A stretch of 64,000 nucleotides of DNA from a virus. Its lineage: Duplodnaviria; Caudoviricetes. The notes beneath the pieces were generated by a model that was given only the letters and a program-made list of their open reading frames with translations, had not been told where the DNA came from and made no database searches. Position numbers and translations under genes: made by a program. This document shows positions 16,607 through 32,045 of this stretch, one piece after another; position 1 is the stretch's first letter, and each line of letters opens with the position of its first letter. The stretch covers positions 128,001 to 192,000 of IMG/VR virus record IMGVR_UViG_3300014204_000112; one strand, written 5' to 3'.

Positions 16607-16618
16607 ATTTACTTTTTG

Positions 16619-16707
16619 CGGCAGAGAGAGGATTCGAACCTCCGGGCCAGTTTTCACCGACCGACAGTTTAGCAAACTGCTACCTTAAACCTCTCGGTCA
16701 CTCTACC
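16619..16707 (-). tRNA. tRNA-Ser (GCT)
   Basis: ttGCTaa, long variable arm. Confidence 0.9.
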
Positions 16708-17356: not shown

Positions 17357-17392
17357 ACGTTTTTATTTATTTATACTGGCCCCATAAGTAAA

Positions 17393-17550: not shown

Positions 17551-18229
17551 ATTTTTTAATTTCGTATTGTTTTAATTCCGCTTCTCTCCAGATTTCCAAC
17601 TCATTATTTTTCAATACCTCAGTCCATTTGAGAAGATCAGTATCTTTTACATATCCTTTAGTTTCAACATAATAGAAGGATCCGTCATTTCTAAAAACCT
17701 TAAAATCCAAAAGATAGCTGTGAGATTTCCCATCCAAGCCAATATATTGAATTCGATCGTTAGTGTATTCCCAATCAAATATTGTTTTCTGTTCTTTCCA
17801 TCTGTCTAAGATTTTACATGCTCGCAATTCGTATGTACCTTGAATTTTGATGTCCTTGTAAACAAACCATTTTGTTTTTCCACCATATACCATTTTTCCA
17901 GAAGAGTACAGAGATTTTATCGCTTTGGACAAATTTAGTTTACGTTCGTCGCTAAATGAACAATGTGTATTTGTATAGATTTGTTGACAAGTTCGCGAAC
18001 AAAATTGAGATTGCCGTTTGGTCCACGGTCTAGAAAATTCATTTTTGCAATTTTTACAAATGATAATCAAGGATGGATGACCAGATCCCTTTAATTTGGT
18101 TGAAACTTTTTTGTTTATTAATTCTCTTTTTTCTTTTGAACTAAATCCACGTGAGCATTTTATTGAACAAAAACGACCACTTCCAAATGAACCATTGTGC
18201 TCTGTGCCACAATATTCGCAAGATTTCAT
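17549..18229 (-). CDS. PD-(D/E)xK (TnsA-N-like) endonuclease with Zn ribbons
   Basis: CEYC, FCS..C repeats, YLLDFKV, YVETKG. Confidence 0.8.
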   Translation of the reverse strand: MKSCEYCGTEHNGSFGSGRFCSIKCSRGFSSKEKRELINKKVSTKLKGSGHPSLIIICKNCKNEFSRPWTKRQSQFCSRTCQQIYTNTHCSFSDERKLNLSKAIKSLYSSGKMVYGGKTKWFVYKDIKIQGTYELRACKILDRWKEQKTIFDWEYTNDRIQYIGLDGKSHSYLLDFKVFRNDGSFYYVETKGYVKDTDLLKWTEVLKNNELEIWREAELKQYEIKK

Positions 18230-18291
18230 AAGATTTTATTTTTTTTTCTTATTTATCTTCGAACCTTCGACTTTTTGAGCCATCTAAAATG

Positions 18292-18367
18292 TGGGTGTCT
18301 AACCAGATTCGAACTGGTACTAAAAGTGCCACAAACTTTCGTGCTAACCATTAACACTATAAACACC
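18292..18367 (-). tRNA. tRNA-His (GTG)
   Basis: ttGTGgc, G-1 present. Confidence 0.9.
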
Positions 18368-18438
18368 ATGTAAAAAAATGCTTCTCGGATTACCTTACGG
18401 CATGTGTCCCGATAGTTCTGTATGCACGAAGCATTGTG

Positions 18439-18520
18439 TACCCAATGAGGGACTCGAACCCTCACGCCTTTCGACACTGGTTCCTAAAACCAGCGCGTCT
18501 ACCAGTTCCGCCAAATGGGC
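18439..18520 (-). tRNA. tRNA-Leu (TAG)
   Basis: ttTAGga, long variable arm. Confidence 0.9.
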
Positions 18521-18525
18521 ATGTG

Positions 18526-18609
18526 TACTCATAGTCGGACTCGAACCGACACGTCCATACGAACACTGCGCCCTGAACGCAGCGCGTCTACCAGTTCCGC
18601 CATACGAGC
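18526..18609 (-). tRNA. tRNA-Leu (CAG)
   Basis: ttCAGgg, long variable arm. Confidence 0.9.
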
Positions 18610-18614
18610 ATTTG

Positions 18615-18697
18615 TACCCGAGAGGGGACTTGAACCACTACGTCAAATTGACACATGGCCCTCAACCATGCGCGTCTACCAGTTCCGCCACCCGGGC
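18615..18697 (-). tRNA. tRNA-Leu (GAG)
   Basis: ttGAGgg, long variable arm. Confidence 0.9.
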
Positions 18698-18980
18698 AGG
18701 TGATTCGGTTTCGAGGAGAGCCTCCTACTCTCTTCCATCACCGTTATTACGAACGGTTAAAATGTCTCGAAGAGCTTTTCACATGCGCACCGTACTTCCA
18801 CTTTTTACATTTCCATACTTGTTATGCTACAGCTCCATTGAACATTAAAGGATAGCGTCCCATGCAACTCGAAACCCCCATCGTAGGTTTTTACTCTAAA
18901 GCTCGCAGAAGCTAGAGAGCCGTTAATTACTTTGGGATTTTGTTTGGATCTGCGGTCCAAACAACTTTACTTTTATCGTG

Positions 18981-19065
18981 CGGAAAATGAAGGATTCGAA
19001 CCTCCGGACCCTTGCGGATCAACTGTTTTCGAGGCAGCCCCGATCGACCACTCCGGCAATTTTCC
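18981..19065 (-). tRNA. tRNA-Ser (CGA)
   Basis: ctCGAaa, long variable arm. Confidence 0.9.
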
Positions 19066-19072
19066 ATGTACT

Positions 19073-19160
19073 TGGCGGAAGAGGAGGGATTCGAACCCCC
19101 GGACCCTTTCAGATCTCCAGTTTTCAAGGCTGGCGCAATCGACCGCTCTACCACTCTTCC
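19073..19160 (-). tRNA. tRNA-Ser (TGA)
   Basis: ctTGAaa, long variable arm, CCA. Confidence 0.9.
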
Positions 19161-19176
19161 GAATTTTTTGTTTTGG

Positions 19177-19250
19177 TGGCAGTCCCGCCAGGATTCGAAC
19201 CTAGACCAAGAGAACCAAAATCTCTTGTACTGCCGTTACACTACGAGACC
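19177..19250 (-). tRNA. tRNA-Gln (TTG)
   Basis: ttTTGgt, CCA. Confidence 0.9.
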
Positions 19251-19274
19251 GTGTAACTTACTGTTGCTTTCTTT

Positions 19275-19724
19275 TCATGACTTCTTTCTTTTTGTATTTT
19301 TACCTGAAAAATTTGAAGTTTGGCTATGACAATTTGGGCATAGCAATTGTAAATTTTTTAATCGATGATTTTTAGAATTTCCATCTTTGTGATGTAGTTG
19401 GAGGTTAATTTCTCTGCCATTCCAGTTTGTTAGACCACATTCTTCGCATTCATCTTTTTTTATTTCTTCTTCTATTAACCTACGTTTTAGGTTTTTAGTT
19501 TGATAAGATGAATGTAGTCCATCTAAAATTTCAGAAATCGGTATTTTACCTATACCATCGATTTTTGGTTTTTTAGTGCCCTTTCCTCCTTGATTCTTTT
19601 TTAGAGGTACTGCAAAATCATTAGAGAGTTTCCATAATTGGTATCTATTGATCTTTAATAATTTAGCAGCTTCTGTTGAAGTTGGGGTTTGATGAATTGC
19701 GGCGATAAATTCAGATCTTTCCAT
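19275..19724 (-). CDS. HNH endonuclease
   Basis: CEECG, LQLHHKDGN..NHRLKNLQLLCPNCH. Confidence 0.9.
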   Translation of the reverse strand: MERSEFIAAIHQTPTSTEAAKLLKINRYQLWKLSNDFAVPLKKNQGGKGTKKPKIDGIGKIPISEILDGLHSSYQTKNLKRRLIEEEIKKDECEECGLTNWNGREINLQLHHKDGNSKNHRLKNLQLLCPNCHSQTSNFSGKNTKRKKS

Positions 19725-19784
19725 TGCAAGAGTTTGTTTTTATTTATTTGCAACACTCTCACATTTTCAACACATGTTGATTAG

Positions 19785-19855
19785 TTGTTCCGGAAGGAGT
19801 CGAACCTTCGTCTAATGATCCAGAGTCATTGATGTTACCATTGCACCACGGAACA
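19785..19855 (-). tRNA. tRNA-Gln (CTG)
   Basis: ctCTGga. Confidence 0.9.
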
Positions 19856-19861
19856 GTGTAT

Positions 19862-19952
19862 TGGAGCAGATTGCGAGGTCGTTAGCCACGCTCCCTCGGC
19901 TTGGTGCCGCTATGCCACACGGTTGATCAGTTTCCGTATACACCCTTTCTGC
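19862..19952 (-). ncRNA. degenerate tRNA-like RNA with CCA end
   Basis: GCAGA/TCTGC-T-CCA ends; atypical D, anticodon and T arms. Confidence 0.4.
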
Positions 19953-19957
19953 ATGTG

Positions 19958-20028
19958 AGCGGATGACCAGAATTGAACTGGCGTCCGAAGCTTGGCAAGC
20001 TCCTACATTACCACTATGCTACACCCGC
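19958..20028 (-). tRNA. tRNA-Gly (GCC)
   Basis: ttGCCaa. Confidence 0.9.
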
Positions 20029-20645
20029 GATTTGATAAATTTTGTTAGAACGTCATCAAACTCTTTGCCGTCTGACCATGGTATTCTAATTACTGTAATT
20101 CCAATGGATTTTAGATAAGCGTCTCTATTTTTATCTTTCTCTTGTATTTTAGAAAATCGATGCGTTCCACCGTCTATTTCCAAATCGATTTTATCTTTTT
20201 CGAAATAAAAATCAAGAAAATACATTGTCTTTTTGCCGGTAACAGTAATTGGATATTCTTTAACAAAGTCTATGCAATTAGCGTCTTTCAATTTTCTTTC
20301 AGTATATTCTTCTGGATAACTTTGAAGATTTTTTCGAGTTTTCCAAGTTGCGTGAATTCCGTTATCAAACGCTTTTTTTGCAGATTCGCTCATTTTTAAT
20401 TTAGCTTCTTCTGTGTGAGTTTTACCTTTCATCCATGGAGAACGGCCGCTCATTAACTTTGAGGAACGCTGTAAGCTATCGTTAGTGTCCTTTGATAAAC
20501 CTTTATTCCATACAACTCTTCCATTTTTGTAACCTCGGTTTGGATCATGCGATTTACCATCTCCGTGATTTTTCCAAATATGCGTTCCTAACCCGTATCT
20601 AGAATAAGCTTTACCACAATATGGACAATTTTCGGTTTTAAGCAT
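20019..20645 (-). CDS. Vsr/DUF559-like endonuclease with NUMOD3 motif
   Basis: YFLDFY, LEIDGGTH, DKNRD, VIRIPW. Confidence 0.8.
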   Translation of the reverse strand: MLKTENCPYCGKAYSRYGLGTHIWKNHGDGKSHDPNRGYKNGRVVWNKGLSKDTNDSLQRSSKLMSGRSPWMKGKTHTEEAKLKMSESAKKAFDNGIHATWKTRKNLQSYPEEYTERKLKDANCIDFVKEYPITVTGKKTMYFLDFYFEKDKIDLEIDGGTHRFSKIQEKDKNRDAYLKSIGITVIRIPWSDGKEFDDVLTKFIKSRV

Positions 20646-20689
20646 GGCGTTTTATTTTATTTATACAACGCCATGCTCTACCAGTTTAG

Positions 20690-20880
20690 TTAATCGTTTC
20701 GTAATTGGACTTCTGTTTCTCATCTAACATTTATCTTAGCCTCAACCCGACTATCATTGAATTGCTGACCTTCTAAGTCTGTTTGAGTTGCACCAATGTC
20801 GTATAACGTCTTTCGACTTCAACAACCAGCAAAGGTGGCACCAATTTCCTCAGTTTCCCGCGTTAGATACTTTCGCCTAA
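20690..20880 (-). ncRNA. candidate miniature RNase P RNA
   Basis: GAGGAAATTGG (CR-I-like) pairs with GTCCAATT in ACAGAAGTCCAATTAC (CR-V-like); AGATAAATG (CR-IV-like); P2 ATCTAAC/GTTAGAT. Confidence 0.6.
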
Positions 20881-20885
20881 TGTTC

Positions 20886-20961
20886 TGGAGCTAAAGTCGA
20901 GATTCGAACTCGAGACCTTCTCAATACCAATGAGATGCTCTACCTACTGAGCTACTTCAGC
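20886..20961 (-). tRNA. tRNA-Thr (GGT)
   Basis: ttGGTat, CCA. Confidence 0.9.
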
Positions 20962-20967
20962 GTTGTG

Positions 20968-21049
20968 TACCCATAGTCGGAATCGAACCGACACTCCTTT
21001 CGAAACTGCGTTTTAAGTGCAGCGCGTCTACCTGTTCCGCCATCGGGGC
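20968..21049 (-). tRNA. tRNA-Leu (TAA)
   Basis: ctTAAaa, long variable arm. Confidence 0.9.
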
Positions 21050-21056
21050 ATTTGCG

Positions 21057-21143
21057 CGGAGAGAACAGGGCTCGAACCTGCACCGCGACGATGTCGCGGA
21101 ACGGCTTTCCAAGCCGCTGCAGTACCATTATGCTTACCTCTCC
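21057..21143 (-). tRNA. tRNA-Ser (GGA)
   Basis: ttGGAaa, long variable arm. Confidence 0.9.
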
Positions 21144-21150
21144 GAATTTT

Positions 21151-21233
21151 CCGGCTGCATTGCCTGCTATGCTACCTCCACTGATCATTTAAGCTAGCTA
21201 CATGGTACATGGACTTGAACCATGCTACACCGG
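21151..21233 (-). ncRNA. circularly permuted tRNA-like element
   Basis: CCGG closing stem; T arm CATGGTTCAAGTCCATG precedes TACC/GGTA and a D-like arm GCATAGCAGGCAATGC. Confidence 0.5.
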
Positions 21234-21238
21234 CTTCG

Positions 21239-21313
21239 TAGCGATGATCGGAATTGAACCGATGACCTTTGGGTTATGAAACCAACGCTCTTGACCGACT
21301 GAGCTACATCGCC
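21239..21313 (-). tRNA. tRNA-Met (CAT), elongator type
   Basis: ttCATaa, paired 1:72. Confidence 0.85.
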
Positions 21314-21963
21314 ATTAAATCAATTACCGTAAACTCATCATTTGAAATTCTTTTAATTTCTGAGTATTTAAGAATTTTCAAATTTTTAACAGCTTTCCAT
21401 TTTGCTAAATCTCTATCCGATTCTCTTGAATATCCTTTTATCTCAATGTATACATCGTATTCTGGTAAGTAAAAATCCGGAAAATACGTTCTATTTCCAT
21501 TCCACTCATACGAAAAACCAGTTACATTATTTGTCCATTTGATAGATACTAAATCTAACCATTTGGCAAAGAGTAGTTCCCAAGATCCTTTAAATTTAGT
21601 TCCGTTATAGTCGTAAATCTTACATCTACCTGAAACACTAGATGCTGAATATCTTTCAGGATGTCTTAATATTGCAGCCTTTATTTTATTGGACTGCTCT
21701 TTACGAGCATCGGGATTTTTCCATTTAATTAGATTTCGTTCTCGAGTTTTATTTCCTATTCGTTTTCTTCCTTCTAATTCTTTAGCGGATGGAACGTATT
21801 CAATATTTAATTTTTTAGCTTTTGTGTATTGATTATTGCGACCAATTTTACCAAATGATGGATGATCTTCTTTTTTCTTATTTGGATTTTTGATACATAA
21901 TCTTTCGTGCGAAAACCATCCCAATTGTTTGCATAATTTTCCGCAATACTGGCATTCATGCAT
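21304..21963 (-). CDS. PD-(D/E)xK endonuclease
   Basis: GSWE, YFPDFYL, YIEIKG. Confidence 0.8.
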   Translation of the reverse strand: MHECQYCGKLCKQLGWFSHERLCIKNPNKKKEDHPSFGKIGRNNQYTKAKKLNIEYVPSAKELEGRKRIGNKTRERNLIKWKNPDARKEQSNKIKAAILRHPERYSASSVSGRCKIYDYNGTKFKGSWELLFAKWLDLVSIKWTNNVTGFSYEWNGNRTYFPDFYLPEYDVYIEIKGYSRESDRDLAKWKAVKNLKILKYSEIKRISNDEFTVIDLMAM

Positions 21964-22035
21964 AATAAGTAGGTTTTATTTTATTTATATGTGCATGAAT
22001 TCAAGCGCTATGCCAAGATAATAAATTGTTAATAG

Positions 22036-22121
22036 TAGCGGGAGTGGGACTTGAACCCACGTTCTCTTTCGAGTTAGGGCTTATGAGACCCCGCTGGTGG
22101 CCACCTCCAGTCGACCCCGCA
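22036..22121 (-). tRNA. initiator-like tRNA (CAT) with a long variable arm
   Basis: 1:72 mismatch, ctCATaa, extra CTCGAAAGAG hairpin. Confidence 0.75.
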
Positions 22122-22280
22122 ATGTTCCTTGAATAACTTTGGTCAACCACTCGCTACCCACCATTTTGTTAAAGTACGCATTGGTTATACCGCCCTGTTC
22201 AGATTTTACTGCATGAGGACTCCCAAGTTCACGTACTATTAACTCCGTGCCAAAGCCTTGTCCGTTGTAAGTCATTCGTG

Positions 22281-22353
22281 TGGAGAAAGACGGATTCGAA
22301 CCGCCGACGCAAAGATCTTCAGTCTTTCGCTCTACCATCTGAGCTATATCTCC
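22281..22353 (-). tRNA. tRNA-Phe (GAA)
   Basis: ctGAAga. Confidence 0.9.
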
Positions 22354-22504
22354 AGGTTATTAGGAAGCGACCTCGATTTTCTCGATTCGACTCGAGCTGA
22401 TGCATTGCTTGACCACAGCTCCGCACATTCACGGTCAAATGAATGCGGCTTATAGGTCCGAGGCGTAAGCGCCAACTACCTTCTACCGACTTCCTAATTT
22501 CGTT

Positions 22505-22582
22505 TGGTGCTCCCTACAGGATTCGAACCTATGACATCTTGCTTGTAAGGCAAGCGCTCTGAACCGACTGAGCTAAGAGAGC
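22505..22582 (-). tRNA. tRNA-Val (TAC)
   Basis: ctTACaa, CCA. Confidence 0.9.
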
Positions 22583-22591
22583 AAGTTAGTG

Positions 22592-22665
22592 TGATCGTAG
22601 CGGGAGTTGAACCTGCGACCTTTACCATGTCAAGGTAACACTCTAACCAACTGAGCTATACGATC
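22592..22665 (-). tRNA. tRNA-Val (GAC)
   Basis: ttGACat. Confidence 0.9.
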
Positions 22666-23293
22666 ATTTTCGACCAGCGTGCCAACCGTTTTGCAAGTAT
22701 TGTTCTAGCTGATCACTTTTTATTTTTTTAGTACTACAATCGTTAGATACCCATACTGTTCCAAATTGAGAATTGTTTGAACCTTTCTGTTTAATAGAAT
22801 TCATTGATCCGATTTTATCTTTAGTTTCAGCAGTATGATTTTTTCCTACAAAAGTATCGTACTTAATTTTTCCTTTAGTGTGAGACTTTTGCAATCTAAC
22901 TGAACTTCGTTTGCTTTGGTCTTCTCTGTATTCTGGATCTTTCCACTTTTTCAACAACCAATCAGTTGCTCCTTTGTGCAATTTTATTTCATGATCAGAA
23001 TTACATAATCCTCCACCTCCACCTGGTTGTAAATTCATGCACATCTTGTCATTCAGGAGATCTTCGTTTATTAGTTGATATTCTCTATTCTTTAATGCTT
23101 CTCTGTTCTCCAGGAACTCCAGAATCTCTTTGGTGTGATTTTGTTTGCCGTATTTATGAATAGAATACCTCAATCTTCTACCGCTTCCCATATACCCATC
23201 ATTTAAGTTCGAAGTCGAATGCATTCCGATGTAGTATCTACCGGTTACATTACATGTGATCTTGTAAATGTAGTGAATTTGTTTTTTTGGCAT
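22664..23293 (-). CDS. GIY-YIG (Seg-like) endonuclease
   Basis: YIYKITC..TGRYYIGMH, YMGSG. Confidence 0.85.
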   Translation of the reverse strand: MPKKQIHYIYKITCNVTGRYYIGMHSTSNLNDGYMGSGRRLRYSIHKYGKQNHTKEILEFLENREALKNREYQLINEDLLNDKMCMNLQPGGGGGLCNSDHEIKLHKGATDWLLKKWKDPEYREDQSKRSSVRLQKSHTKGKIKYDTFVGKNHTAETKDKIGSMNSIKQKGSNNSQFGTVWVSNDCSTKKIKSDQLEQYLQNGWHAGRK

Positions 23294-23349
23294 TTTTGTA
23301 CTGAGCTTTTTGTTATTTATATGAGCTCAAGTACAAAAATGACCAGAGG

Positions 23350-23424
23350 TACCGCATAGGGGATTCGAACCCCTGAATCTCCAGGATGAAAACCTGACGT
23401 CCTAACCAGCTAGACGAATGCGGC
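23350..23424 (-). tRNA. tRNA-Glu (TTC)
   Basis: ttTTCat. Confidence 0.9.
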
Positions 23425-23429
23425 ATGTT

Positions 23430-23543
23430 TGGAGGTAAGCGCTAGATTCGAACTAGCCACACAGCAGATTGCTCTGCCTCATTATCCGAAGGACTTCGAC
23501 CCTATGCATCAAATCGAAGCTCTTAATTCTGTGATAGCTTACC
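23430..23543 (-). ncRNA. tRNA-like RNA with perfect acceptor stem, T arm and CCA but an expanded core
   Basis: GGTAAGC/GCTTACC-T-CCA; GCTAGTTCGAATCTAGC; internal CTTCGA/TCGAAG helix. Confidence 0.6.
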
Positions 23544-23556
23544 GTGTGTCTTCCAG

Positions 23557-23630
23557 TACTCCGGGGTGGGATTGAACCACCGACCTTGATCTTATAAGAA
23601 TCCTGCTACTAACCGCTGAGCTACCGGAGC
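23557..23630 (-). tRNA. tRNA-Ile (TAT)
   Basis: ctTATaa. Confidence 0.8.
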
Positions 23631-23639
23631 AAATAAGTT

Positions 23640-23710
23640 GGAGAGAAAATCGGTAGAGTTGTTTGTTGTAAAACCAAAATTTACGAAGTAACTCTTTCCT
23701 TTACTACTCC
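23640..23710 (-). ncRNA. Y-RNA-like RNA 4, minimal (no tRNA module)
   Basis: TAGTAA-N5-AGAGTTACTTCG ... CTCT..TTCT, closed by GGAG/CTCC. Confidence 0.7.
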
Positions 23711-23713
23711 TAG

Positions 23714-23788
23714 TGGATACATGTGGGCTTCGAACCCACGACCTCCTGATTGCAAAACAGGCGCTCTTGCCATCTGAGCTAATGACCC
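23714..23788 (-). tRNA. tRNA-Ala (TGC), irregular acceptor stem
   Basis: ttTGCaa. Confidence 0.8.
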
Positions 23789-24417
23789 AAATTTCTACCT
23801 TTTATCCAACCAGTTGGAATCAGTTCGTTTTTTTGTATTTTCTTATTTACTGTTCCATTAGTAATCCACTGAGTTCCGTATTGCGAATTATTAGAACCCA
23901 GTTGACTGGTTGAATTCTTTAATCCTATTACTTTTTTTGTTTTATCAGTATGCTGCTTTCCTAAAAAATTATCAGTTTTTATTTTACCAGTTTCCCATGC
24001 ATGCTTCATATTTGCACTAGAAATATTATGATACTTTTTTCTAAAGGATTCATCGATTTGCATACGATTCGAAAAAGCAGTATTTCCAGCAGTCCCACAT
24101 TTTTTCATGTGATTAACATTACAAAATCCGCCGCTTCCGCCAGGTTTCAAATTCATACACAGTGGATCATCTAGTAACTCAATATTTACGAGTTGAGTTT
24201 CTCTATTGATCAAAGATTCTTTAGTCTCTAGGAACTCCAGAATCTCCTTAGTGTGATTCTCTCTGCCATGCTTAAGAACTGAATATCTTAATTGTTTGCC
24301 GCTTCCGAAATATCCATCTTCTAAATTTGAAGCTGAATGCATTCCGATGTAATATCTACCAGTTACATTGCATGTGATCTTGTAAATGTAAAAGATTGAT
24401 TTAGGTTTTCTTGGCAT
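23779..24417 (-). CDS. GIY-YIG (Seg-like) endonuclease
   Basis: Paralog of 22664-23293 and 15052-15612. Confidence 0.85.
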   Translation of the reverse strand: MPRKPKSIFYIYKITCNVTGRYYIGMHSASNLEDGYFGSGKQLRYSVLKHGRENHTKEILEFLETKESLINRETQLVNIELLDDPLCMNLKPGGSGGFCNVNHMKKCGTAGNTAFSNRMQIDESFRKKYHNISSANMKHAWETGKIKTDNFLGKQHTDKTKKVIGLKNSTSQLGSNNSQYGTQWITNGTVNKKIQKNELIPTGWIKGRNLGH

Positions 24418-24473
24418 CTGCCGTACATTATTTTAGATTATTTATCTAAGACAAGGTACAAAAAATGCCGGGG

Positions 24474-24547
24474 TGGAGATTACGAGATTCGAACTCGTGA
24501 CATCCTGCTTGCAGGGCAGGCGCTCTGGCCATCTGAGCTAAATCCCC
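24474..24547 (-). tRNA. tRNA-Ala (TGC)
   Basis: ctGCAag region read as ccTGCaa; G3:U70. Confidence 0.9.
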
Positions 24548-24550
24548 ATA

Positions 24551-24658
24551 AGTAGAGAAAGTCGGAAGAGATAACAGGCGGTTTCGACACCGCGACTTTT
24601 GTTTAAGAGACAAATACTGGACTCCCAGCTCGAAGTAACTCTTTCCATTACTACTACT
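24551..24658 (-). ncRNA. Y-RNA-like RNA 5 with a Lys(CTT)-like anticodon arm and a T-like arm
   Basis: TAGTAA-N5-AGAGTTACTTCG ... CTCT..TTCT; TTTGT ctCTTaa ACAAA. Confidence 0.72.
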
Positions 24659-24661
24659 TTG

Positions 24662-24737
24662 TAGGGTAGGTGGGCTATGACCCCACGTGCTCTTAATCCC
24701 AAATCAAGCGAGATAAACCAGACTCCTCTACTACCCT
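24662..24737 (-). tRNA. tRNA-Pro (TGG)
   Basis: ttTGGga; variant T loop. Confidence 0.8.
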
Positions 24738-25381
24738 GTGATGTTATTTTTTAAGAATGTTTTTATTTGAGATTCCATAAGTTTGAAATTTCGGTGTTTC
24801 CATTGTATTCTTACAATTTTCCAACCTTCCTTTTTTATTATGTTATCTCGATTTACATCATATTCTTTTCTTTCCTCATGTTGTTTTCCATCTATTTCTA
24901 AAATTACTTTTTTATCAATGAATGCAAAATCAGCAAAAAATCTATTTACTTTATGATCTCTTATGTATTTTATTTGTTCTTTATTAAGAAGATCTATTGT
25001 AAATTGTTCAGCCCAAGACGGTTTCTTATTTAATCGTGAAGGATAACCATTATGTCTACCTTCTTTTGCTAATTGTTTTTGTGTATATGAAGAAGAACAA
25101 TTCCGCGAACAGAATTTATTAGTATTTGTTATTAACACTTCTTTTTCTTTTCCGCATACTAAACACGACATTATTTTTCTATCAATTAAATGAAGACCTT
25201 TTCTATTAGTTGACGTTCCTTTCAAAAATGATGGTTTTCCTAATAACGATTTACTAACCTTTTCGTTAATTTCTTTCCGTTTTTCTTTTGTACTAAATCC
25301 TCTAGAACATTTAGAAGAACAAAATCTGCCACTTCCATATTGACCATCATGTGGATTACCACAATTTTCGCAAAGTTTCAT
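24731..25381 (-). CDS. Vsr/DUF559-like endonuclease with Zn ribbons
   Basis: FFADFA, LEIDGKQH, DVNRD; N-terminus shared with 17549-18229. Confidence 0.8.
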   Translation of the reverse strand: MKLCENCGNPHDGQYGSGRFCSSKCSRGFSTKEKRKEINEKVSKSLLGKPSFLKGTSTNRKGLHLIDRKIMSCLVCGKEKEVLITNTNKFCSRNCSSSYTQKQLAKEGRHNGYPSRLNKKPSWAEQFTIDLLNKEQIKYIRDHKVNRFFADFAFIDKKVILEIDGKQHEERKEYDVNRDNIIKKEGWKIVRIQWKHRNFKLMESQIKTFLKNNITG

Positions 25382-25433
25382 AAGTTCGTTTATTGTTATT
25401 TATATTCGAACCTATCCACTTTTTTGATCCCGG

Positions 25434-25507
25434 TAGGCAGGGGTGGACTTGAACCACCGGCCTCTTCCTTATCAGAGAAGCGCTCTAACCAACTGAGCTA
25501 CATGCCC
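25434..25507 (-). tRNA. tRNA-Ile (GAT)
   Basis: ctGATaa. Confidence 0.9.
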
Positions 25508-25637
25508 GTATATGAAGCAACGATTTTCCATGTCAGTAGGACGTTGCCAACCTATCCAGCTTACGATCTGGCTCGCCGTTTGACCTTGCGGTCAGGGAAA
25601 GCGAGGAACTACGACCCGGTGGCCTGCCGGTACATCG

Positions 25638-25846
25638 AGCCTTTAGACGGATTCGAACCGCCGACTCCTCAACTACACCGTATGGTCTTGATTCGTGTAC
25701 ACTCCTCTTGATTTTCAGGTTCGTCTACCTCGAATCTCCTGGTTATCCATTCAAGTTGTCTTACGTACGACGCATTGAACCTTTCGCCAAAATTTCCAAG
25801 GTCCGGTCCTAATCCGGACGCTCTAAGCCGCTGAGCTAAGGGGATA
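25638..25846 (-). ncRNA. chimeric tRNA-like element with a ~130-nt structured insert
   Basis: 5' D and anticodon arms (atTAGga), 3' T arm; acceptor strands pair poorly. Confidence 0.4.
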
Positions 25847-25848
25847 TT

Positions 25849-26442
25849 TTATTTGTTAAAATTTATTTCGATGAATCTTTTTGTTTGAGTATTAGAAATG
25901 TTCCAACTTTTTGATAATTTCGTAATCCAACCGAATTTCTTTTCTATTGAATCATACTCATTTTTTCTTCTATTAAATTCGTCAGTTTTCATTTTTCCAG
26001 CTTCGCTTATCAATCTTTTAGATTCAGAAGTATGTCGTTTTCCTTTGAACGATGCAGCACCCAATCTTTTTCTTTTTGATAATGGAATTGGCCAACCCTT
26101 GTGTTTTCCTTCAATAACGTTTTTCTTTATTGATTCTCTTCTCTCTGGTCTGCTCCAAGCGTATTCCCAACCACCTTCTCCTCCAAGCTTGAGATTGTAA
26201 GTATCTTCTCTGTTAATAAAGAATTCATTTACTAGTTCTTTTTCTTTTTCTAGAGCTTCATTTTTCGTTGGAAAAACGTAAAGAATTTCTTTTCTGAAAT
26301 TTTGAATCCCATATTTTTTAATTGCCGCTTTTAACAATTTTCCAGAACCAAAATACTCGTCATTCAAATTTTTAGTTGAATGATAACCGATGTAAATTTT
26401 AGAATTTAAGCAATTTGTTATTTTGTAAATAGCGTAATACAT
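25849..26442 (-). CDS. GIY-YIG (Seg-like) endonuclease
   Basis: AIYKITN..NSKIYIGYH, YFGSG. Confidence 0.85.
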   Translation of the reverse strand: MYYAIYKITNCLNSKIYIGYHSTKNLNDEYFGSGKLLKAAIKKYGIQNFRKEILYVFPTKNEALEKEKELVNEFFINREDTYNLKLGGEGGWEYAWSRPERRESIKKNVIEGKHKGWPIPLSKRKRLGAASFKGKRHTSESKRLISEAGKMKTDEFNRRKNEYDSIEKKFGWITKLSKSWNISNTQTKRFIEINFNK

Positions 26443-26487
26443 TAACCGTAGTTTTGATTTTATTTATATGAATCTGCGGTTAATTTG

Positions 26488-26560
26488 AGCTTCCTGTAGG
26501 CTACGACCCCACGACCCTCTGAGTACAAATCAGATGCTCTACCAACTGAGCTAAGGAAGC
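26488..26560 (-). tRNA. tRNA-Thr (TGT)
   Basis: ttTGTac. Confidence 0.88.
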
Positions 26561-26570
26561 ATTTTTTGAG

Positions 26571-26643
26571 AGCCTCATACCCGATTCAAACGGGTGACCT
26601 ACTGAGTACGAATCAGTTGCTCTATCTGCTGAGCTAAAGAGGC
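26571..26643 (-). tRNA. tRNA-Thr (CGT)
   Basis: ttCGTac. Confidence 0.88.
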
Positions 26644-26644
26644 A

Positions 26645-27079
26645 TTATAAATCTTTGGCTGTTACGAATTCCTGTGAACTGATTCGGTTAGGACCTCCAT
26701 CGACGAAGTACGTAAGATTATTTCCAGTTCGTATTGCCCATAGTATCAACCAATTAAGAACAGCTGAATCCATTTTAGAAACTGCTTCTATAGCTTGATA
26801 ATGTTCAATCTTGCCAGTTTTCTTCGTCACTAGAACGTTGGACAAGCTCGGTTTCATCCACATTGGAAAGTCATCATTCGTTAACCATTCGCACTTGTAA
26901 GTTATGCAAGGATCGATCGGTCTATTCTCGTAAATCGTGCAACCTTTTCCGATTTCTACAAAGTGACAAGGTTTTCCTCGATAGAATCTTTCTCCATGAG
27001 CTACTCCGTGTAACCAACCTTCACAACATTTCGTGCAATCTCCACAAGTTCTTTTTGGAACATTAACAGTTTTTTCCAT
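26645..27079 (-). CDS. Cys-cluster (CxxCxxCC, YkgJ-like) protein
   Basis: CGDCTKCC...C...CTIYENRP..PC. Confidence 0.7.
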   Translation of the reverse strand: MEKTVNVPKRTCGDCTKCCEGWLHGVAHGERFYRGKPCHFVEIGKGCTIYENRPIDPCITYKCEWLTNDDFPMWMKPSLSNVLVTKKTGKIEHYQAIEAVSKMDSAVLNWLILWAIRTGNNLTYFVDGGPNRISSQEFVTAKDL

Positions 27080-27126
27080 TCTAGTAGTTTTACTTATTAT
27101 ACAGAAGGACCGTAACAAGTTTTATT

Positions 27127-27202
27127 TGGCACCCGCGGAAGGACTTGAACCCTCAACCCTCGGTTTTGGAGACCGGTACTCTACCAATTGAGCTACACGG
27201 AT
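27127..27202 (-). tRNA. tRNA-Trp (CCA)
   Basis: ctCCAaa, CCA end. Confidence 0.9.
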
Positions 27203-27207
27203 AAGTT

Positions 27208-27316
27208 TGATTTGAGAATGGTAAAAAGAGTTTTTTACTAAGCAAGGTTTGGTGCTTGGTGTTGGATTCGAACCAACGATAACCATCGATGTATCTCTTT
27301 TTTTTGCTACAAATCA
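27208..27316 (-). ncRNA. Y-RNA-like RNA 6 with a T arm and one further hairpin
   Basis: TAGCAA-N5-AGAGATACATCG ... CTCT..TTCT; GTTGGTTCGAATCCAAC. Confidence 0.7.
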
Positions 27317-27317
27317 G

Positions 27318-27394
27318 CGGGCCCAAACGGATTCGAACCGTCCTGAATCTTCTGAGTGACAGTCAGACAGCCACACCTAGCAGCCCCTGAGCCC
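27318..27394 (-). tRNA. tRNA-Asp (GTC)
   Basis: ctGTCac. Confidence 0.88.
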
Positions 27395-27922
27395 ATGTTC
27401 TTTTTCTTCAATATTCTGTAGTTTCCAAACTTCAAACTGAATATTTTGTTCAGATAATGCTTTCCATTTACACTTATCGATTTCAGTTTCAAATCCTTTA
27501 ACTTCAATGTAATAGGTAGATCCATTAATATTGATGACTTTGAAATCCAATAGATAATTATGAACTTCGTTATCTGGACCTATGTATTGTATTCGGTCAT
27601 TTGTGTATTCCCAATCTCTTATTAAGTAGTTGGCCTTCCAATTATCAAGAATTTTACAAACTCGTAATTCAAAGGATCCCTGTACCTTGATTGATTTATA
27701 TTGATACCATTTAGAAGTTCCACCAGCTACATAATTATGACCTAACCTATAAGCTTGTTTATGAACTTCTGACCAATTTACTTTATTATGGTTTGACCAA
27801 CTTCCTCGTAATTTACTAGAACAGCTAACTGAGCAACATTTTTGATTTCTTTTATTCCAGTGAACTGAGAATTTAGTCAAACAATATTTACAAATTAACT
27901 GCACATCTTCGTGTTTTGTCAT
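27377..27922 (-). CDS. PD-(D/E)xK (TnsA-N-like) endonuclease
   Basis: QGSFELR, YLLDFKV, YIEVKG; paralog of 17549-18229. Confidence 0.8.
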   Translation of the reverse strand: MTKHEDVQLICKYCLTKFSVHWNKRNQKCCSVSCSSKLRGSWSNHNKVNWSEVHKQAYRLGHNYVAGGTSKWYQYKSIKVQGSFELRVCKILDNWKANYLIRDWEYTNDRIQYIGPDNEVHNYLLDFKVININGSTYYIEVKGFETEIDKCKWKALSEQNIQFEVWKLQNIEEKEHGLRGC

Positions 27923-27968
27923 GGCACTTTATTTATACGCGCCTCGTCTTTCGCCGTGAAGTTAAATG

Positions 27969-28044
27969 TGGTAGGCTCGAAGGGACTTGAACCCTTGACT
28001 CCCGCCTTAAAAGGGCGGTACTCTACCAACTGAGTTACGAACCC
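27969..28044 (-). tRNA. tRNA-Lys (TTT)
   Basis: ctTTTaa, CCA. Confidence 0.9.
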
Positions 28045-28460
28045 GTAATCGCTTCTCGAATCTTTTGTTTATGTTCATCCGATTTAGCTTTACCCCTATT
28101 TCCTTTACCACCGTTTGACGAACGTTTTCTCAAAAGTTCTTTAGCTTTAACTTTGCCATGTTTATCAATCATTCGTTGATAGATTGATGGCGCTCCATTT
28201 TCGTATTCGTCAATTTTATTATCTGACTTAGTCCCCCAATACATGTGATTAGGATTACTACATTTTGGATTGTTACAGCCGTGGCAAACAACGATGCTAT
28301 TTCCATTGACTGGCATTGTCGTATCGTAGTGGTATGCAACCAGAGCAACTAACTGAGTAGAGTATTTCAATCCACGTTCGTGGCAAGGTTCCTCTAACTT
28401 TAGCATTTGTTTTCTTTGTGCTCTAGTGTTTTCGATTACAAAATTTTCAACTGATTTCAT
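28035..28460 (-). CDS. HNH/His-Cys-type endonuclease
   Basis: VCHGCNNPKCSNPNHMYWGT..DN. Confidence 0.8.
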   Translation of the reverse strand: MKSVENFVIENTRAQRKQMLKLEEPCHERGLKYSTQLVALVAYHYDTTMPVNGNSIVVCHGCNNPKCSNPNHMYWGTKSDNKIDEYENGAPSIYQRMIDKHGKVKAKELLRKRSSNGGKGNRGKAKSDEHKQKIREAITGS

Positions 28461-28541
28461 GTTTTAGTTTATATATCTAGAGCAATCTCTTAAAAGTACA
28501 GCACTCTAGCGATAATTGGTCTTTGTTCAATAAATAACGGC

Positions 28542-28739
28542 ATGGTTAATGAACGTTATTTTATGTGCTCCAAGTGCGGAACAGTCGTCGACTCGTTCGG
28601 CAAAGCAGTGGATGCAAAGAAACTAGAAATAGACATAAAATCTTTAAGAAGTACCACTTGTAAGATTTGTCTTGACTATCAAATCTGGGAAAACAATACT
28701 TACTTTTCGAGGACTGATCGGGACTCGAACCCGAGATAA
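28542..28739 (+). CDS. small Zn-ribbon protein antisense to the tRNA array
   Basis: CSKC...CKIC; ATAAATA late-promoter-like motif just upstream on the + strand. Confidence 0.5.
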   Translation: MVNERYFMCSKCGTVVDSFGKAVDAKKLEIDIKSLRSTTCKICLDYQIWENNTYFSRTDRDSNPR

Positions 28740-28779
28740 CCAACTGGATGGGGCGCGCACCAACCACCACGTTCAGCCC
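28710..28779 (-). pseudogene. degenerate tRNA (anticodon arm poorly paired; TCC or CCA)
   Basis: GGGCTGA/TCAGTCC acceptor and TCGGGTTCGAGTCCCGA T arm intact. Confidence 0.5.
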
Positions 28780-28790
28780 ATAAATACAAA

Positions 28791-28925
28791 CAAGAACACT
28801 GGATAGAGGAATTTGATTGATGTCAATTTTACAGATTGATGACTTAGACCGCTCGTCCAACGACCCGAAAGCCGTACGGGATTCGAACCCGTGATCGAAG
28901 TAACTCTATGACCTTACTATGCTTG
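28791..28925 (-). ncRNA. Y-RNA-like RNA 7, permuted at the variable loop (T arm, looped acceptor, D arm, GTA anticodon arm)
   Basis: TAGTAA-N6-AGAGTTACTTCG ... CTCT..TTCT. Confidence 0.78.
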
Positions 28926-29373
28926 ATTTCTTATTTACAATGTTTTTTGCTCCGAACGTATGTGTTTGTGAATGACAGTTTGGACACAAAATTCTCAGAT
29001 TTTGAAGTCTGTGATTTCGGTTATTTCCGTCAATATGATCGACTTGTAATGATAAAGGTAGACCGTTCCATTCTGCTGGAGTTCCGCATTCTTCACATCG
29101 ATCCTCTTTATAACCTTCCAGTATCAATCGTCTTTTTAATTTCGATGTCGGATATTCTGGGTGTTTTCCTTCAAGAATGTCTAGCAATTTGAATGCTACT
29201 CCTCCGGTTCTTTTCATTTTTCGTAACTTGACTTCAATTTGTATTCCTAACAAATTGCAATATTTGGTTAGGGTTACTCTACTGATTCCAGTTACTTCTG
29301 AAAGTTCCAAAACAGAGCTAACGTTCTTGGCATTTTCATTGATTTTGTCTACGATTTCTTGGTTTAGCCGCAT
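28906..29373 (-). CDS. HNH endonuclease
   Basis: CEECG, LQVDHIDGN..NHRLQNLRILCPNCH; start moved to MRLNQ. Confidence 0.9.
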   Translation of the reverse strand: MRLNQEIVDKINENAKNVSSVLELSEVTGISRVTLTKYCNLLGIQIEVKLRKMKRTGGVAFKLLDILEGKHPEYPTSKLKRRLILEGYKEDRCEECGTPAEWNGLPLSLQVDHIDGNNRNHRLQNLRILCPNCHSQTHTFGAKNIVNKKSSIVRS

Positions 29374-29426
29374 TGCTTTATTTTTATTTATATGCGGTCT
29401 GTTTACCAAAACCTCTGTAAACTACG

Positions 29427-29508
29427 TGGGATGTGATGGAGTCGAACCACCCGAGCTTTCACAACAGATTTACAGTCTGCCCCGCTACCATCTACGGAAT
29501 AACATCCC
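29427..29508 (-). tRNA. tRNA-Tyr (GTA)
   Basis: ctGTAaa, variable arm. Confidence 0.9.
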
Positions 29509-29549
29509 ATTGTCCCTCTATTTTTGATTTCCTGGAGGGTGCGGAAGGT

Positions 29550-29669
29550 GCGGGAAGGTGAGATTCGAACTCACGAGATCAAATTGACAGTTTGATTGTT
29601 TCCGATGCAACTCTTATCATTGCTATCCTTTCAGAAGAAATTCGACAGAGCGTTTTGAATTTCTTCCCC
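29550..29669 (-). ncRNA. tRNA/Y-RNA chimera A (D arm replaced by the Y-like stem; GTC loop)
   Basis: GGGAAG/CTTCCC acceptor, CTCT..TTCT-loop-TAGCAA-N5-AGAGTTGCATCG, ctGTCaa, T arm. Confidence 0.75.
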
Positions 29670-29708
29670 GAGTGTACCTGTTTTTACTGTACAGGAGAAC
29701 AGTGTAGG

Positions 29709-29826
29709 AGGGGGAAGTTGGATTTGAACCAACGATCAAATTTTCAAGGTTTGATTGTGCCGATGAAACTCTTATCATTGCTATCATCGCTGAAGAAAGT
29801 CGACAGAGTCGTTTTTACTTTCCCCC
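29709..29826 (-). ncRNA. tRNA/Y-RNA chimera B
   Basis: GGGGGAA/TTCCCCC acceptor, same internal module, T arm GTTGGTTCAAATCCAAC. Confidence 0.75.
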
Positions 29827-29842
29827 ATGTTTTATTAAGTAT

Positions 29843-29967
29843 TGGCGAGGGAGGCTGGATTTGAACCAACATAATCAAGTTTTCAATTTGACTGTTACCG
29901 ATGCAACTCTATTCATTGCTATCATTGCTGAAGAAAGTCGGATAGAGCATTGTGTATATGCTCCCTC
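29843..29967 (-). ncRNA. tRNA/Y-RNA chimera C with encoded CCA (GAA loop)
   Basis: GAGGGAG/CTCCCTC-G-CCA, same internal module. Confidence 0.78.
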
Positions 29968-29975
29968 ATGTATTT

Positions 29976-30764
29976 TTATAGGTTCCAAGATTTTCCTTTG
30001 TACTCCCGATTCACTCTTCGGTATGAAGAGATGATCCCTTGTGAATGAAGATCGTAACCGTTGAGTATTCTTATATTCATTGGAAATTGGTCCCATTTTG
30101 CGAAATCTTTATCTGTAGGATATCCTTTAATTTCGATGTAAACATTATCCTCTAAAAGATAAAAATCTGGCGTGTAATACCTTTTTTTTCCATCAAAGAA
30201 GTATTCGAATTTTTCAGTAGGTCTTCGCCACTTGATCGAATTTGCATCCAACCATTTAGCATATTCAACTTCCCATATTCCTTGAAATTTTTTTCCAGCA
30301 TATTCATGAGTTCTAGACTTAGAAAAGGATAAATGCCAATTATCATTTTTAACGTTTTCTTTTATTGTATTAGCAATAGTATTTCGATGATCTATTGATA
30401 AATGTTTTCCTTTAAAAAAAGGTATGAATGCACCGGATTTAAGGTTAGTATTAAAAGTATCTGACCCTTTTTTAACTCTAGCATCGGTTTCTTTGGTTAA
30501 TCCGTGATTCCATGAAGGTTTACCACCAAGATTATTATTTTTCCAATTAATTCCATCTTCATGATTTCTCCAAATGTGAGAAATGATTCCTAATTTAGAA
30601 TAAACTTTACCACAGTATGGGCATTTATAAGTTCCATCATTTTGTAAATAATTAATGCTCTTTAATCTAATTTTCTTAGTTCCACAAGATTTTTCATGTT
30701 TAGATATATTACTTAAACTTATCTTAATGCCGCATTTTTTACAGTTAGTAGTGTGTCGGTTCAT
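29976..30764 (-). CDS. PD-(D/E)xK endonuclease with Zn fingers
   Basis: CPYCGK, GIWE, YTPDFYL, YIEIKG. Confidence 0.8.
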   Translation of the reverse strand: MNRHTTNCKKCGIKISLSNISKHEKSCGTKKIRLKSINYLQNDGTYKCPYCGKVYSKLGIISHIWRNHEDGINWKNNNLGGKPSWNHGLTKETDARVKKGSDTFNTNLKSGAFIPFFKGKHLSIDHRNTIANTIKENVKNDNWHLSFSKSRTHEYAGKKFQGIWEVEYAKWLDANSIKWRRPTEKFEYFFDGKKRYYTPDFYLLEDNVYIEIKGYPTDKDFAKWDQFPMNIRILNGYDLHSQGIISSYRRVNREYKGKSWNL

Positions 30765-30815
30765 TGCATTTGACCTTTATTTCTATTTATAATAGTCATA
30801 TGCAATTATTGTTAG

Positions 30816-30886
30816 CGGGTCCTCCTGGGCTCGAACCAGGGATCGAAAATTAACAGTTTCCCGTGATACCTCTTCACCAAAGACCC
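30816..30886 (-). tRNA. tRNA-Asn (GTT)
   Basis: ctGTTaa. Confidence 0.85.
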
Positions 30887-31062
30887 AATGTATTGAACGT
30901 GTCGACCACCCAACAAGGCCGATGTTATGGTGCAATTTGAAGCGCCGCACCTGGATTAGGGATTTCAGAGGTTGTTACTTGTGCTCAGCCTACGGGCCAC
31001 TCACTTTCTTTATGCATGTCTTGCATCGATTTCGCAACTTGAACCATCGTTCAATTTTTTAT

Positions 31063-31138
31063 TGGAGCGAGAGACGGGGATCGAACCCGCTGCATCCAGC
31101 TTGGAAGGCTGGCACTCAACCAAATGAGCTTCTCTCGC
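31063..31138 (-). tRNA. tRNA-Gly (TCC)
   Basis: ctTCCaa, CCA. Confidence 0.9.
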
Positions 31139-31235: not shown

Positions 31236-31341
31236 TCGTAACTGTAGCGATGTCCTGCTACTCTGTTACTGTGTGAATGAAGTTGGACTCGACCAACGTG
31301 TATTCTCTAATTCACTCGTATTTCAAAAGAACTGATGCCGT

Positions 31342-31380
31342 AAAACGAAAAAACCCGGACTTTTTGAAGGTCCGGGTTTT
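31342..31380 (-). terminator. attenuator terminator hairpin
   Basis: AAAACCCGGAC-loop-GTCCGGGTTTTTT then CGTTTT. Confidence 0.85.
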
Positions 31381-31410
31381 CCCTAGATTTCGTGATATGT
31401 TATTTCACCT

Positions 31411-31536
31411 TCACTCTAACCTATGTAAACCCAGACCCATTCTTTCGTCGCATGACGGATTCCATGTGCCAATAAATCCCACGAGGGCTATTGGTTGGGA
31501 ACTACGATACGACTTATGTAAGTTCTGGTTTTTCAT
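31411..31536 (-). CDS. 41-aa leader peptide of a putative tRNA-operon attenuator
   Basis: MKNQNLHKSYRSSQPIALVGFIGTWNPSCDERMGLGLHRLE*; contains the antiterminator strand GGTCTGGGTTT (31427-31437). Confidence 0.75.
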   Translation of the reverse strand: MKNQNLHKSYRSSQPIALVGFIGTWNPSCDERMGLGLHRLE

Positions 31537-32045
31537 TGGTTTTTGTGTTTGTTCAGGTTTATTTATCACGATACTTCAAAAAGTTTTCGCTTTAGTTTTG
31601 ATATTTTACCACTTTTTTTCTGGGTTGGTCGATTTTTTTTCTTGGGCCACCAAATTTATTTAAGTCGTATGGCGGTAAGTAATCGTCTCCCGTTGGAGTG
31701 GATGTTGTGTTGTACTCTTCATTTACTTTTCGGTTTTCACCGGAATTAAACTCTCTTGCAACTTTACCAAATTGGCATAGAACATTGGCCTGTTGAAAAT
31801 AAAAAGAGCCGTTTCGTATGCCGTGTGCATGGCCAGGTAAGCGTAATGAATGATGATCAAAATCAGAGCTACTATTGCTCCTGCGATCTTTGCGGCTCCC
31901 TTGAACTCCTTCATCATATTCTTCATTCTCTTCCAGTGGATGCCTTCTTTCTTGTAAACTACACCTAAGTAAGTCATGTTATTTTGATTTGATATTGCAA
32001 ATATACCAACTATTGCTGAAACGAAAAAATCCTGGTGAAACTTTT

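Follow-up and report, generated by a model that had tools for sequence, protein, structure and literature searches.

For fifty years, leader-peptide attenuation has been recognised as a mechanism that matches amino-acid synthesis to demand, with described examples in the leaders trpL, hisL, leuL and pheL and in the multivalent leaders thrL and that of ilvGMEDA. In attenuators of the trp/his type, a short open reading frame (ORF) is translated, and one strand is common to an antiterminator and an intrinsic terminator; termination is favoured by a ribosome that has reached the stop codon, read-through by one that has stalled. T-box riboswitches also report tRNA or aminoacylation state through a terminator/antiterminator switch, in their case by sensing uncharged tRNA, and control aminoacyl-tRNA synthetase and amino-acid genes. 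Here we analyse a putative attenuator of the trp/his type at the head of a tRNA array in a phage genome, IMG/VR record IMGVR_UViG_3300014204_000112. The DNA analysed (64,000 nucleotides, hereafter the window) comprises bases 128001-192000 of this 213,922-bp genome (42% G+C). To our knowledge, no account exists of leader-peptide attenuation in a virus or acting on tRNA genes, nor of a sensor polling all twenty amino acids, and our literature searches for leader-peptide control of tRNA genes retrieved no description of it.

The core of the locus consists of the following elements:

31560..31567, minus strand: phage promoter motif GATAAATA, 23 nt before the leader ATG, kept as TGATA(A/T)ATAA in all relatives

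31411..31536, minus strand: leader ORF of 41 codons plus TGA (ATG at 31536, TGA at 31413-31411), with all 20 amino acids by codon 31

31510..31541, minus strand: segment 1, the start-codon region, a candidate anti-antiterminator that can pair with segment 2

31448..31507, minus strand: mid-ORF hairpin, codons about 10-30, from the RNAalifold consensus of nine sequences

31427..31438, minus strand: segment 2, 5' strand of the antiterminator, codons 34-37, pairing with 31379-31368

31368..31380, minus strand: segment 3, 5' arm of the terminator, common to antiterminator and terminator according to folding and alignment

31341..31360, minus strand: segment 4, 3' arm of the terminator plus T-run, with 97.5% of cells paired

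15667..31138, minus strand: putative regulated unit, 38 tRNA genes (predicted with ARAGORN) and interspersed endonuclease-like ORFs

Read as a whole, the sequence suggests, with a probability that we put at roughly 0.68, a ribosome-mediated transcription attenuator of the trp/his type, whose sensor ORF would poll the 20 amino acids and control the entry of transcription into the array of 38 tRNA genes. Of the structural characters of such attenuators, sequence analysis indicates a translated leader ORF, a terminator ahead of the controlled genes, a mutually exclusive antiterminator and, in a model, a fitting ribosome geometry, but no run or enrichment of regulatory codons: the leader of the window has no run of any amino acid and contains instead all 20, mostly once or twice (eight of them once). 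The array likewise carries tRNAs for all 20 amino acids, so that leader and target still match, though in a more general sense. Multivalent leaders are known that sense two or three amino acids, whereas the phage leader has 20. Attenuators of the trp/his type control biosynthetic enzymes, whereas the phage element would control tRNAs; it is also viral, lies ahead of an rrn-type boxA and encodes a longer peptide (41-44 residues across homologues) that is conserved in sequence. T-box riboswitches, for their part, need no ORF, whereas this element would sense through the ribosome and has neither a specifier loop nor a T-box sequence; an Rfam search of positions 29000-34000 (E<=1) retrieved no T-box and no family beyond tRNAs and a sub-threshold terminator-like match. 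The switch is thus of a known type; the novelty would lie in having all 20 amino acids among the regulatory codons, tRNA genes as the target, and a coupling to rrn-type boxA elements. Leaders of the ermC type and the PA5471.1 leader upstream of armZ in Pseudomonas also alter downstream expression through stalling on a short leader ORF, but they involve drug-bound ribosomes or arrest peptides, without selection for amino-acid completeness, and control no tRNA genes (the MexXY/armZ system is touched on in PMC13041342).

The leader ORF had been proposed in a first-pass annotation of this DNA, every coordinate of which was correct when we re-read the sequence. We also reproduced its counts of 41 codons, 31 distinct codons among the first 32 (AAC being the sole repeat) and 20 amino acids by codon 31. 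Under uniform codon use, the probability of at least 31 distinct codons in 32 is 7.5e-4, and in the whole genome such diversity occurs in 28 of 130,450 stop-free windows of 32 codons in any frame (2.1e-4 per window), which fall into nine loci. Among 976 ORFs taken from their first ATG and 2,511 ATG-started runs (at least 32 codons, six frames, 214-kb genome), the leader is the only case with at least 31 distinct codons or 20 amino acids in 32 codons. Sets of all 20 amino acids are also rare in the long proteins of the phage, occurring in 0.022% of 32-residue and 0.28% of 41-residue windows, and among the small ORFs of all fetched DNA (n=5,583) about 0.7% of those outside the leader family are complete, mostly longer ones. 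No second mini-ORF with all 20 amino acids was found adjoining tRNAs in the genome or in 200-odd fetched loci. The chance expectation is nevertheless about 0.5 such codon-diverse ORFs per genome. With about one per genome to be expected by chance, the case rests on the position at the head of the array and, above all, on conservation.

We found 11 distinct homologues of the leader ORF (W, L016, L003, L020, L004, L007, L009, L211, L008, L210 and L172; W is the window's own copy and is included in all counts of 11). They were gathered from contigs of metagenomic relatives of a 470-residue protein encoded two genes upstream, and by pattern and profile searches. At these loci the flanking 470-residue protein shows 42-91% identity to that of the window. 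The array-opening tRNA-Gly(tcc) lies 0.1-0.4 kb downstream of the leader in nine of the 11, the contigs of L007 and L211 stopping short of any tRNA, and is followed by Asn and Tyr tRNAs wherever the contig extends that far. The leader stays at the head of the array even where the neighbouring protein genes differ (L172, L210). Differences in length result from at least five independent indels, all of them multiples of three. The dN/dS ratios, calculated by the Nei-Gojobori method for each homologue against the window's copy, are 0.12-0.4, and differences at codon positions 1, 2 and 3 number 283, 261 and 423, an excess at the third position. The kept frame and this coding selection indicate that the leader ORF is translated. 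They also bear on the proposal of a chance ORF beside an ordinary terminator of the upstream operon, to which the expectation of about one half per genome lends some colour, but which deserves hardly any credence for an ORF conserved under coding selection where the flanking protein is down to 42% identical.

The amino-acid composition of the peptide is itself conserved. All 20 amino acids are present in nine of the 11 leader peptides, and the 20th is always reached at codon 31-34. Representatives of seven lineages are all complete (7/7), versus a mean of 2.56 after shuffling residues within columns (p=1e-4), and in a branch-wise simulation, in which only positions that had changed were redrawn, the joint probability is 2.6e-4. 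Losses of an amino acid from one position go together with gains elsewhere. For instance, in L211 Phe21 is replaced by Ile and Phe regained at position 31, and in L172 Cys29 has changed to Arg and Gly20 to Cys, and Thr24 to Ala with Thr gained at 8 and 30. Likewise, the L004 clade shows Ala17 to Ser together with Ser9 to Ala; the L004/L009 clade shows Val19 to Glu, with a Val inserted and Glu31 changed to Asp; and in L008, L210 and L172 Gln is gone from positions 4 and 14 and Pro27 has become Gln. These patterns argue that amino-acid completeness is under selection and is upheld by compensating substitutions.

The diversity of codons behaves differently. The first-pass annotation had read the leader as a sampler of nearly every tRNA species, and expected both the ORF and its codon diversity to recur ahead of tRNA arrays in related phages. 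The ORF does recur, in the 11 homologues; the sampling of every amino acid stands and is conserved, but codon-level diversity is not. Given the peptide, synonymous-codon diversity is weakly raised in the window's copy (P=0.04 over the full ORF, 0.008 over its first 32 codons) and not consistently raised in relatives (P 0.03-0.99). We have therefore dropped the pan-codon reading, and the comparisons indicate that the leader is pan-amino-acid rather than pan-codon. A match between leader codons and phage tRNAs does not discriminate either, because the phage tRNA set reads 57 of the 61 codons by simple wobble.

The switch proposed in the first-pass annotation withstood closer inspection. The sequence GGTCTGGGTTT (31437-31427) in codons 34-37 pairs 11/11, with one G-U pair, with AAACCCGGACC (31379-31369) in the 5' arm of the terminator, so that the two structures are mutually exclusive, and both conformations form on folding. 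The terminator has a G+C-rich stem of 11-14 bp (31380-31370 with 31360-31350) followed by a T-run, and over the 18 kb of minus strand from 31353 to 13344 it is the only strong intrinsic terminator before the one at 13344. In the 11-sequence alignment, 85.6% of cells are compatible with the antiterminator pairing versus 59-60% when it is slid by one column, and three pairs (9 cells) have changed on both sides, for example from C-G to U-A in four sequences. The antiterminator scores 0.279 for covariation, a value reached in 4 of 500 shuffles, versus 0.213 for shuffled alignments; the terminator, at 0.188, scores lower than the antiterminator. When the transcript ends short of the 3' arm, the antiterminator reaches a probability of at least 0.95 in eight of the 11, and in nine of the 11 the nascent RNA is predicted to adopt it. 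The local antiterminator hairpin is at least as stable as the terminator (-29.3 vs -17.9 kcal/mol in the window). Its inner helices, P2 and P3, appear in each sequence's own fold, but their columns do not align, and we therefore make no claim of covariation for them.

The 241-nt region as a whole folds better than its shuffles (z = -4.1) and contains the conserved mid-ORF hairpin, in which compensatory changes are few because the sequence is highly conserved; in the switch modelled here, this hairpin may act as a pause or timing hairpin for RNA polymerase. The same two observations would suit a structured non-coding or dual-function small RNA that ends at the terminator and in which the ORF is incidental. 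We regard this as very improbable, because the frame is kept through the indels described above and synonymous changes are in excess, and there is no Rfam match save the terminator-like tail.

A trp/his-type attenuator further implies a particular geometry, which we explored with a footprint model. A ribosome footprint with an assumed size of 29 nt was masked at every A-site codon, and the RNA was then folded. The model gave the following limits:

W: antiterminator survives stalls to codon 31; 20th amino acid at codon 31

L009: antiterminator survives stalls to codon 32-33; 20th amino acid at codon 33

L008: antiterminator survives stalls to codon 33; 20th amino acid at codon 33

L172: antiterminator survives stalls to codon 34; 20th amino acid at codon 33

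In the model, the antiterminator is abolished for stalls past these codons and with a ribosome on the stop codon, as the scheme of a stalled and a terminating ribosome would have it. The boundary codon roughly equals the codon of the 20th amino acid, so that the sensing window and the complete sample would coincide.

The same architecture would respond to any slowing of elongation or initiation. The element could accordingly be a general sensor of translation activity, which reports whether ribosomes follow the polymerase closely (under host shut-off or ribosome-targeting defences, for example), the set of 20 amino acids being a by-product. The predicted nascent-RNA fold, which in a transcript without a ribosome is the antiterminator and which may represent the default state without translation, is in line with this. 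We consider such a general sensor decidedly unlikely, since completeness is upheld by compensating substitutions and since a distant relative, L166, has a leader enriched in exactly the amino acids of its own tRNA block; both point to sampling specific for amino acids. The L166 locus (L166:13270-13456) combines a TGATATATAA-type motif with a 28-codon ORF and a terminator, 20 nt ahead of a block of tRNAs for His-Leu-Leu-Leu-Ser-Ser-Cys. Together, His, Leu, Ser and Cys account for 14 of the 27 residues of the peptide versus a background of 17% (P=4e-5). No antiterminator was seen in its minimum-free-energy (MFE) fold. Both loci have a mini-ORF and a terminator directly before tRNAs, and a peptide whose composition mirrors the tRNAs behind it; the L166 leader is block-specific and rich in few amino acids, whereas that of the window is the limiting case, one complete leader before one complete array.

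Several observations weigh against an attenuator as described. Two of the 11 homologues lack one amino acid each (Trp in L003, Val in L007), and the homologues are mutually related, so that the number of independent lineages behind the statistics is perhaps six or seven. The antiterminator is weakened by a G-to-A mismatch in L016 and L004, with probabilities of 0.24-0.34. At equilibrium, the terminator state of the full RNA is the more stable by 6-15 kcal/mol, since it lets segment 2 pair with the start-codon region. The switch thus has to work kinetically, like that of trp, and would depend on the coupling and timing of ribosome and polymerase. This pairing of segments 1 and 2 is itself weakly supported: segment 2 pairs with ORF nucleotides 1-21 in the full-length MFE structure of eight of the 11 homologues, and the duplex (-6 to -20 kcal/mol) has P<0.05 versus shuffles in eight of the 11, but other ORF segments pair about as well. 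The peptide sequence is well conserved and may have a function of its own. Lastly, the array itself contains the promoter motif TATAAATA/GATAAATA about 11 times, before homing-endonuclease-like (HNH) and other ORFs, at positions that include the following:

30791, 29392, 27937, 26468, 25404, 23321, 21989, 20665 and 17375, minus strand: internal promoters, from motif matches

The single gate for the whole array assumed in the first-pass annotation is not supported, given these internal promoters. The attenuator would govern only transcription entering from the head of the array, as a partial gate and not the sole control.

Internal promoters also speak for an autonomous small-protein gene, with its promoter, 41-codon ORF and terminator forming a self-contained unit and the tRNA array transcribed independently. 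In addition, the peptide is under purifying selection with a well conserved core, and its promoter spacing and A-rich 5' untranslated region are those of the ordinary genes of this phage. We nevertheless judge such a gene rather unlikely. It leaves unexplained why lost amino-acid types are re-supplied elsewhere in the peptide, why codons 34-37 covary with the 5' arm of the terminator, and why the ORF keeps a fixed place at the head of the array despite differing neighbour genes. Moreover, no promoter motif of the phage class was found between the terminator and the genes for tRNA-Gly and tRNA-Asn, the sole conserved motif between the terminator and tRNA-Gly being a boxA, not a promoter, and the peptide has no Pfam-scale relatives beyond its own family.

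The start of the leader conforms to what is standard in this phage, where genes begin with [T/G]ATAAATA (TATAAATA/GATAAATA) and an A-rich spacer upstream of the ATG. This motif, identical to the T4 late-promoter consensus, occurs in 37 copies on the minus strand of the whole genome, typically 12-30 nt upstream of the ATG of real ORFs, and is probably the main promoter class of the phage. The leader has no Shine-Dalgarno sequence; one is found at only 12 of 194 phage genes (6%) versus 17% of random positions. Upstream of the leader promoter, the L004 lineage carries three GGAAAAAGTTGTA(N)AAT-like copies (L004:12640-12780) and the window one similar copy at 31620-31601, a motif without recurrence in the genome. 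Another upstream sequence, TGGTAAAAT, was considered as a promoter family, but it does not recur in the genome either.

Beyond the terminator, the region leading to the first tRNA contains further conserved elements:

31322..31336, minus strand: first boxA-like element, directly 3' of the terminator, of GTTCTTT(G/A)A type, kept in most relatives

31273..31317, minus strand: tRNA-like minihelix with an acceptor-like stem and a T-arm-like hairpin, from folding, in W, L003 and L008

31202..31234, minus strand: second boxA element, matching the spacer boxA of Bacteroidota rrn operons, unique in the genome

31145..31200, minus strand: pre-tRNA leader with two hairpins that show compensatory changes from relative to relative

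We compared the boxA elements with 19 oriented rrn loci of Bacteroidota genomes. The first resembles the leader-type TTCTTTGAAA(G/A) of Bacteroidota rrn operons; the leader-type TTCTTTGAAA(A/G) occurs 118-216 nt before the 16S gene in nine of the 19 loci, with a tenth copy at -482. The second has the core TTCTTTGACAT(N)TTGGGAAA, nearly identical to a motif that 14 of the 19 loci carry 358-659 nt beyond the 16S gene; this motif, TTCTTTGACA(A/T), often followed by (N)TTGGGAAA, stands at the position of the spacer boxA. The second element is present in those relatives whose downstream sequence was read (L003, L004, L210 and L172), and its near-identity to the rrn spacer boxA substantiates the boxA-like element of the first-pass annotation. 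The same stretch (31234-31202) can be read as a sigma-70 promoter (TTGACA, 16 nt, CATAAC), a reading that we dropped because its -10 part is not conserved and the spacer in L172 is 2 nt shorter; the whole motif equals the rrn spacer boxA. The rrn boxA copy, together with genes that lack Shine-Dalgarno sequences, suggests a Bacteroidota-type host.

As in rrn operons, where boxA serves NusB/NusE-dependent antitermination, boxA elements here precede a long untranslated stable-RNA operon, with a near-identical motif at 31234-31202 and a leader-type copy after the terminator. In rrn operons, however, boxA directly follows the promoters, whereas in the phage it lies behind the putative attenuator, where only polymerases that pass the gate would be modified. 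Its place between gate and array suggests that these polymerases are meant to continue. The two hairpins in the pre-tRNA leader coincide in position but differ in sequence among W, L003, L004, L210 and L172, and the minihelix is possibly a processing signal. Its place is taken in L004 by a larger element, also tRNA-like and with a T arm (L004:13040-13165); ARAGORN calls neither.

The array and its surroundings show several other features. ARAGORN predicts 41 tRNA genes in the window, of which the 38 between 31138 and 15667, on the minus strand, cover all 20 amino acids. Outside the stretch from attenuator to terminator, a tRNA with anticodon CTA (6513-6586, minus strand), called tRNA-Pyl by ARAGORN, is a potential amber suppressor. 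The distal end of the array is occupied by an ORF of 542 residues (13381-15009, minus strand), which would be co-transcribed with the tRNAs upon read-through; the strong terminator at 13344 comes next, and was discarded as a further candidate element because it merely ends this gene. Just upstream of the locus (34441-37252, minus strand) lie NAD-salvage genes for a nicotinamide phosphoribosyltransferase (NAMPT, 527 residues) and a ribose-phosphate pyrophosphokinase-like protein (331 residues), in the same order in the relatives L002, L007 and L210. Elsewhere in the genome, several thousand stop-free 32-codon windows with just 8-14 distinct codons reveal at least one very repetitive, low-complexity coding region.

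Searches beyond the metagenomic relatives added little. DNA and protein searches of GenBank phages with the region and with the neighbouring 230-residue gene gave tRNA matches only or none, and no close phage; the NAMPT matches in GenBank phages reached at most 49% identity. Scans of IMG/VR with the 230-residue protein, the exact terminator and NAMPT yielded no useful match, two degenerate DNA patterns retrieved in IMG/VR the same family members and chance matches but nothing further, and a scan of genome contigs gave chance matches only.

For the attenuator that we favour, the elements suggest the following course of events. Transcription would start at the phage-type promoter GATAAATA or arrive from upstream, and the A-rich leader without a Shine-Dalgarno sequence would be translated at once. 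An unhindered ribosome, on reaching the stop codon, would cover codons 34-41 and keep segment 2 off the 5' arm of the terminator, which would then form and end the transcript at about 31345. A ribosome held at any codon up to about 31, a stretch that contains each amino acid at least once, would leave segment 2 free as segment 3 emerges; the antiterminator would form and RNA polymerase would read on. The polymerase would next cross the two rrn-type boxA elements, where it would probably acquire a Nus-factor antitermination complex, and so modified it would transcribe the long untranslated tRNA array. The net logic would be that slow decoding of any amino acid leads to more of the complete tRNA set of the phage.

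Cleavage of tRNAs by a defence system, decay of the host tRNA pool, amino-acid starvation and a general slowing of ribosomes would all give the same signal and are candidate triggers. More specifically, and only tentatively, since we hold it to be doubtful, the element might be a universal decoding sensor that works as a counter-defence switch: when host tRNAs are cut or depleted (by anticodon nucleases, PARIS-type or other systems) or their pool decays late in infection, ribosomes would stall, the attenuator would open, and boxA-modified polymerases would make the replacement tRNA set and a putative Ro60/Y-RNA-like RNA-repair module.

The compensating amino-acid substitutions represent an unusual signature of selection, which appears to act on what a peptide is composed of and not on how it folds, and the rrn boxA copy suggests that the phage borrows the host's rRNA antitermination system for its tRNA array. 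If the attenuator model holds, it would provide a compact natural part, about 200 nt long, by which slow translation of any codon class is converted into transcriptional output. Large phages would then gauge how well an infected cell can decode, and would replenish its tRNAs by feedback, which bears on why phages carry tRNA arrays, whether to compensate for codon usage or to replace tRNAs lost to shut-off or defence. Should the counter-defence reading also be true, this leader would, together with block-wise leaders matched in amino acids to the tRNAs behind them, represent a widespread, undescribed class of feedback control of tRNA supply.

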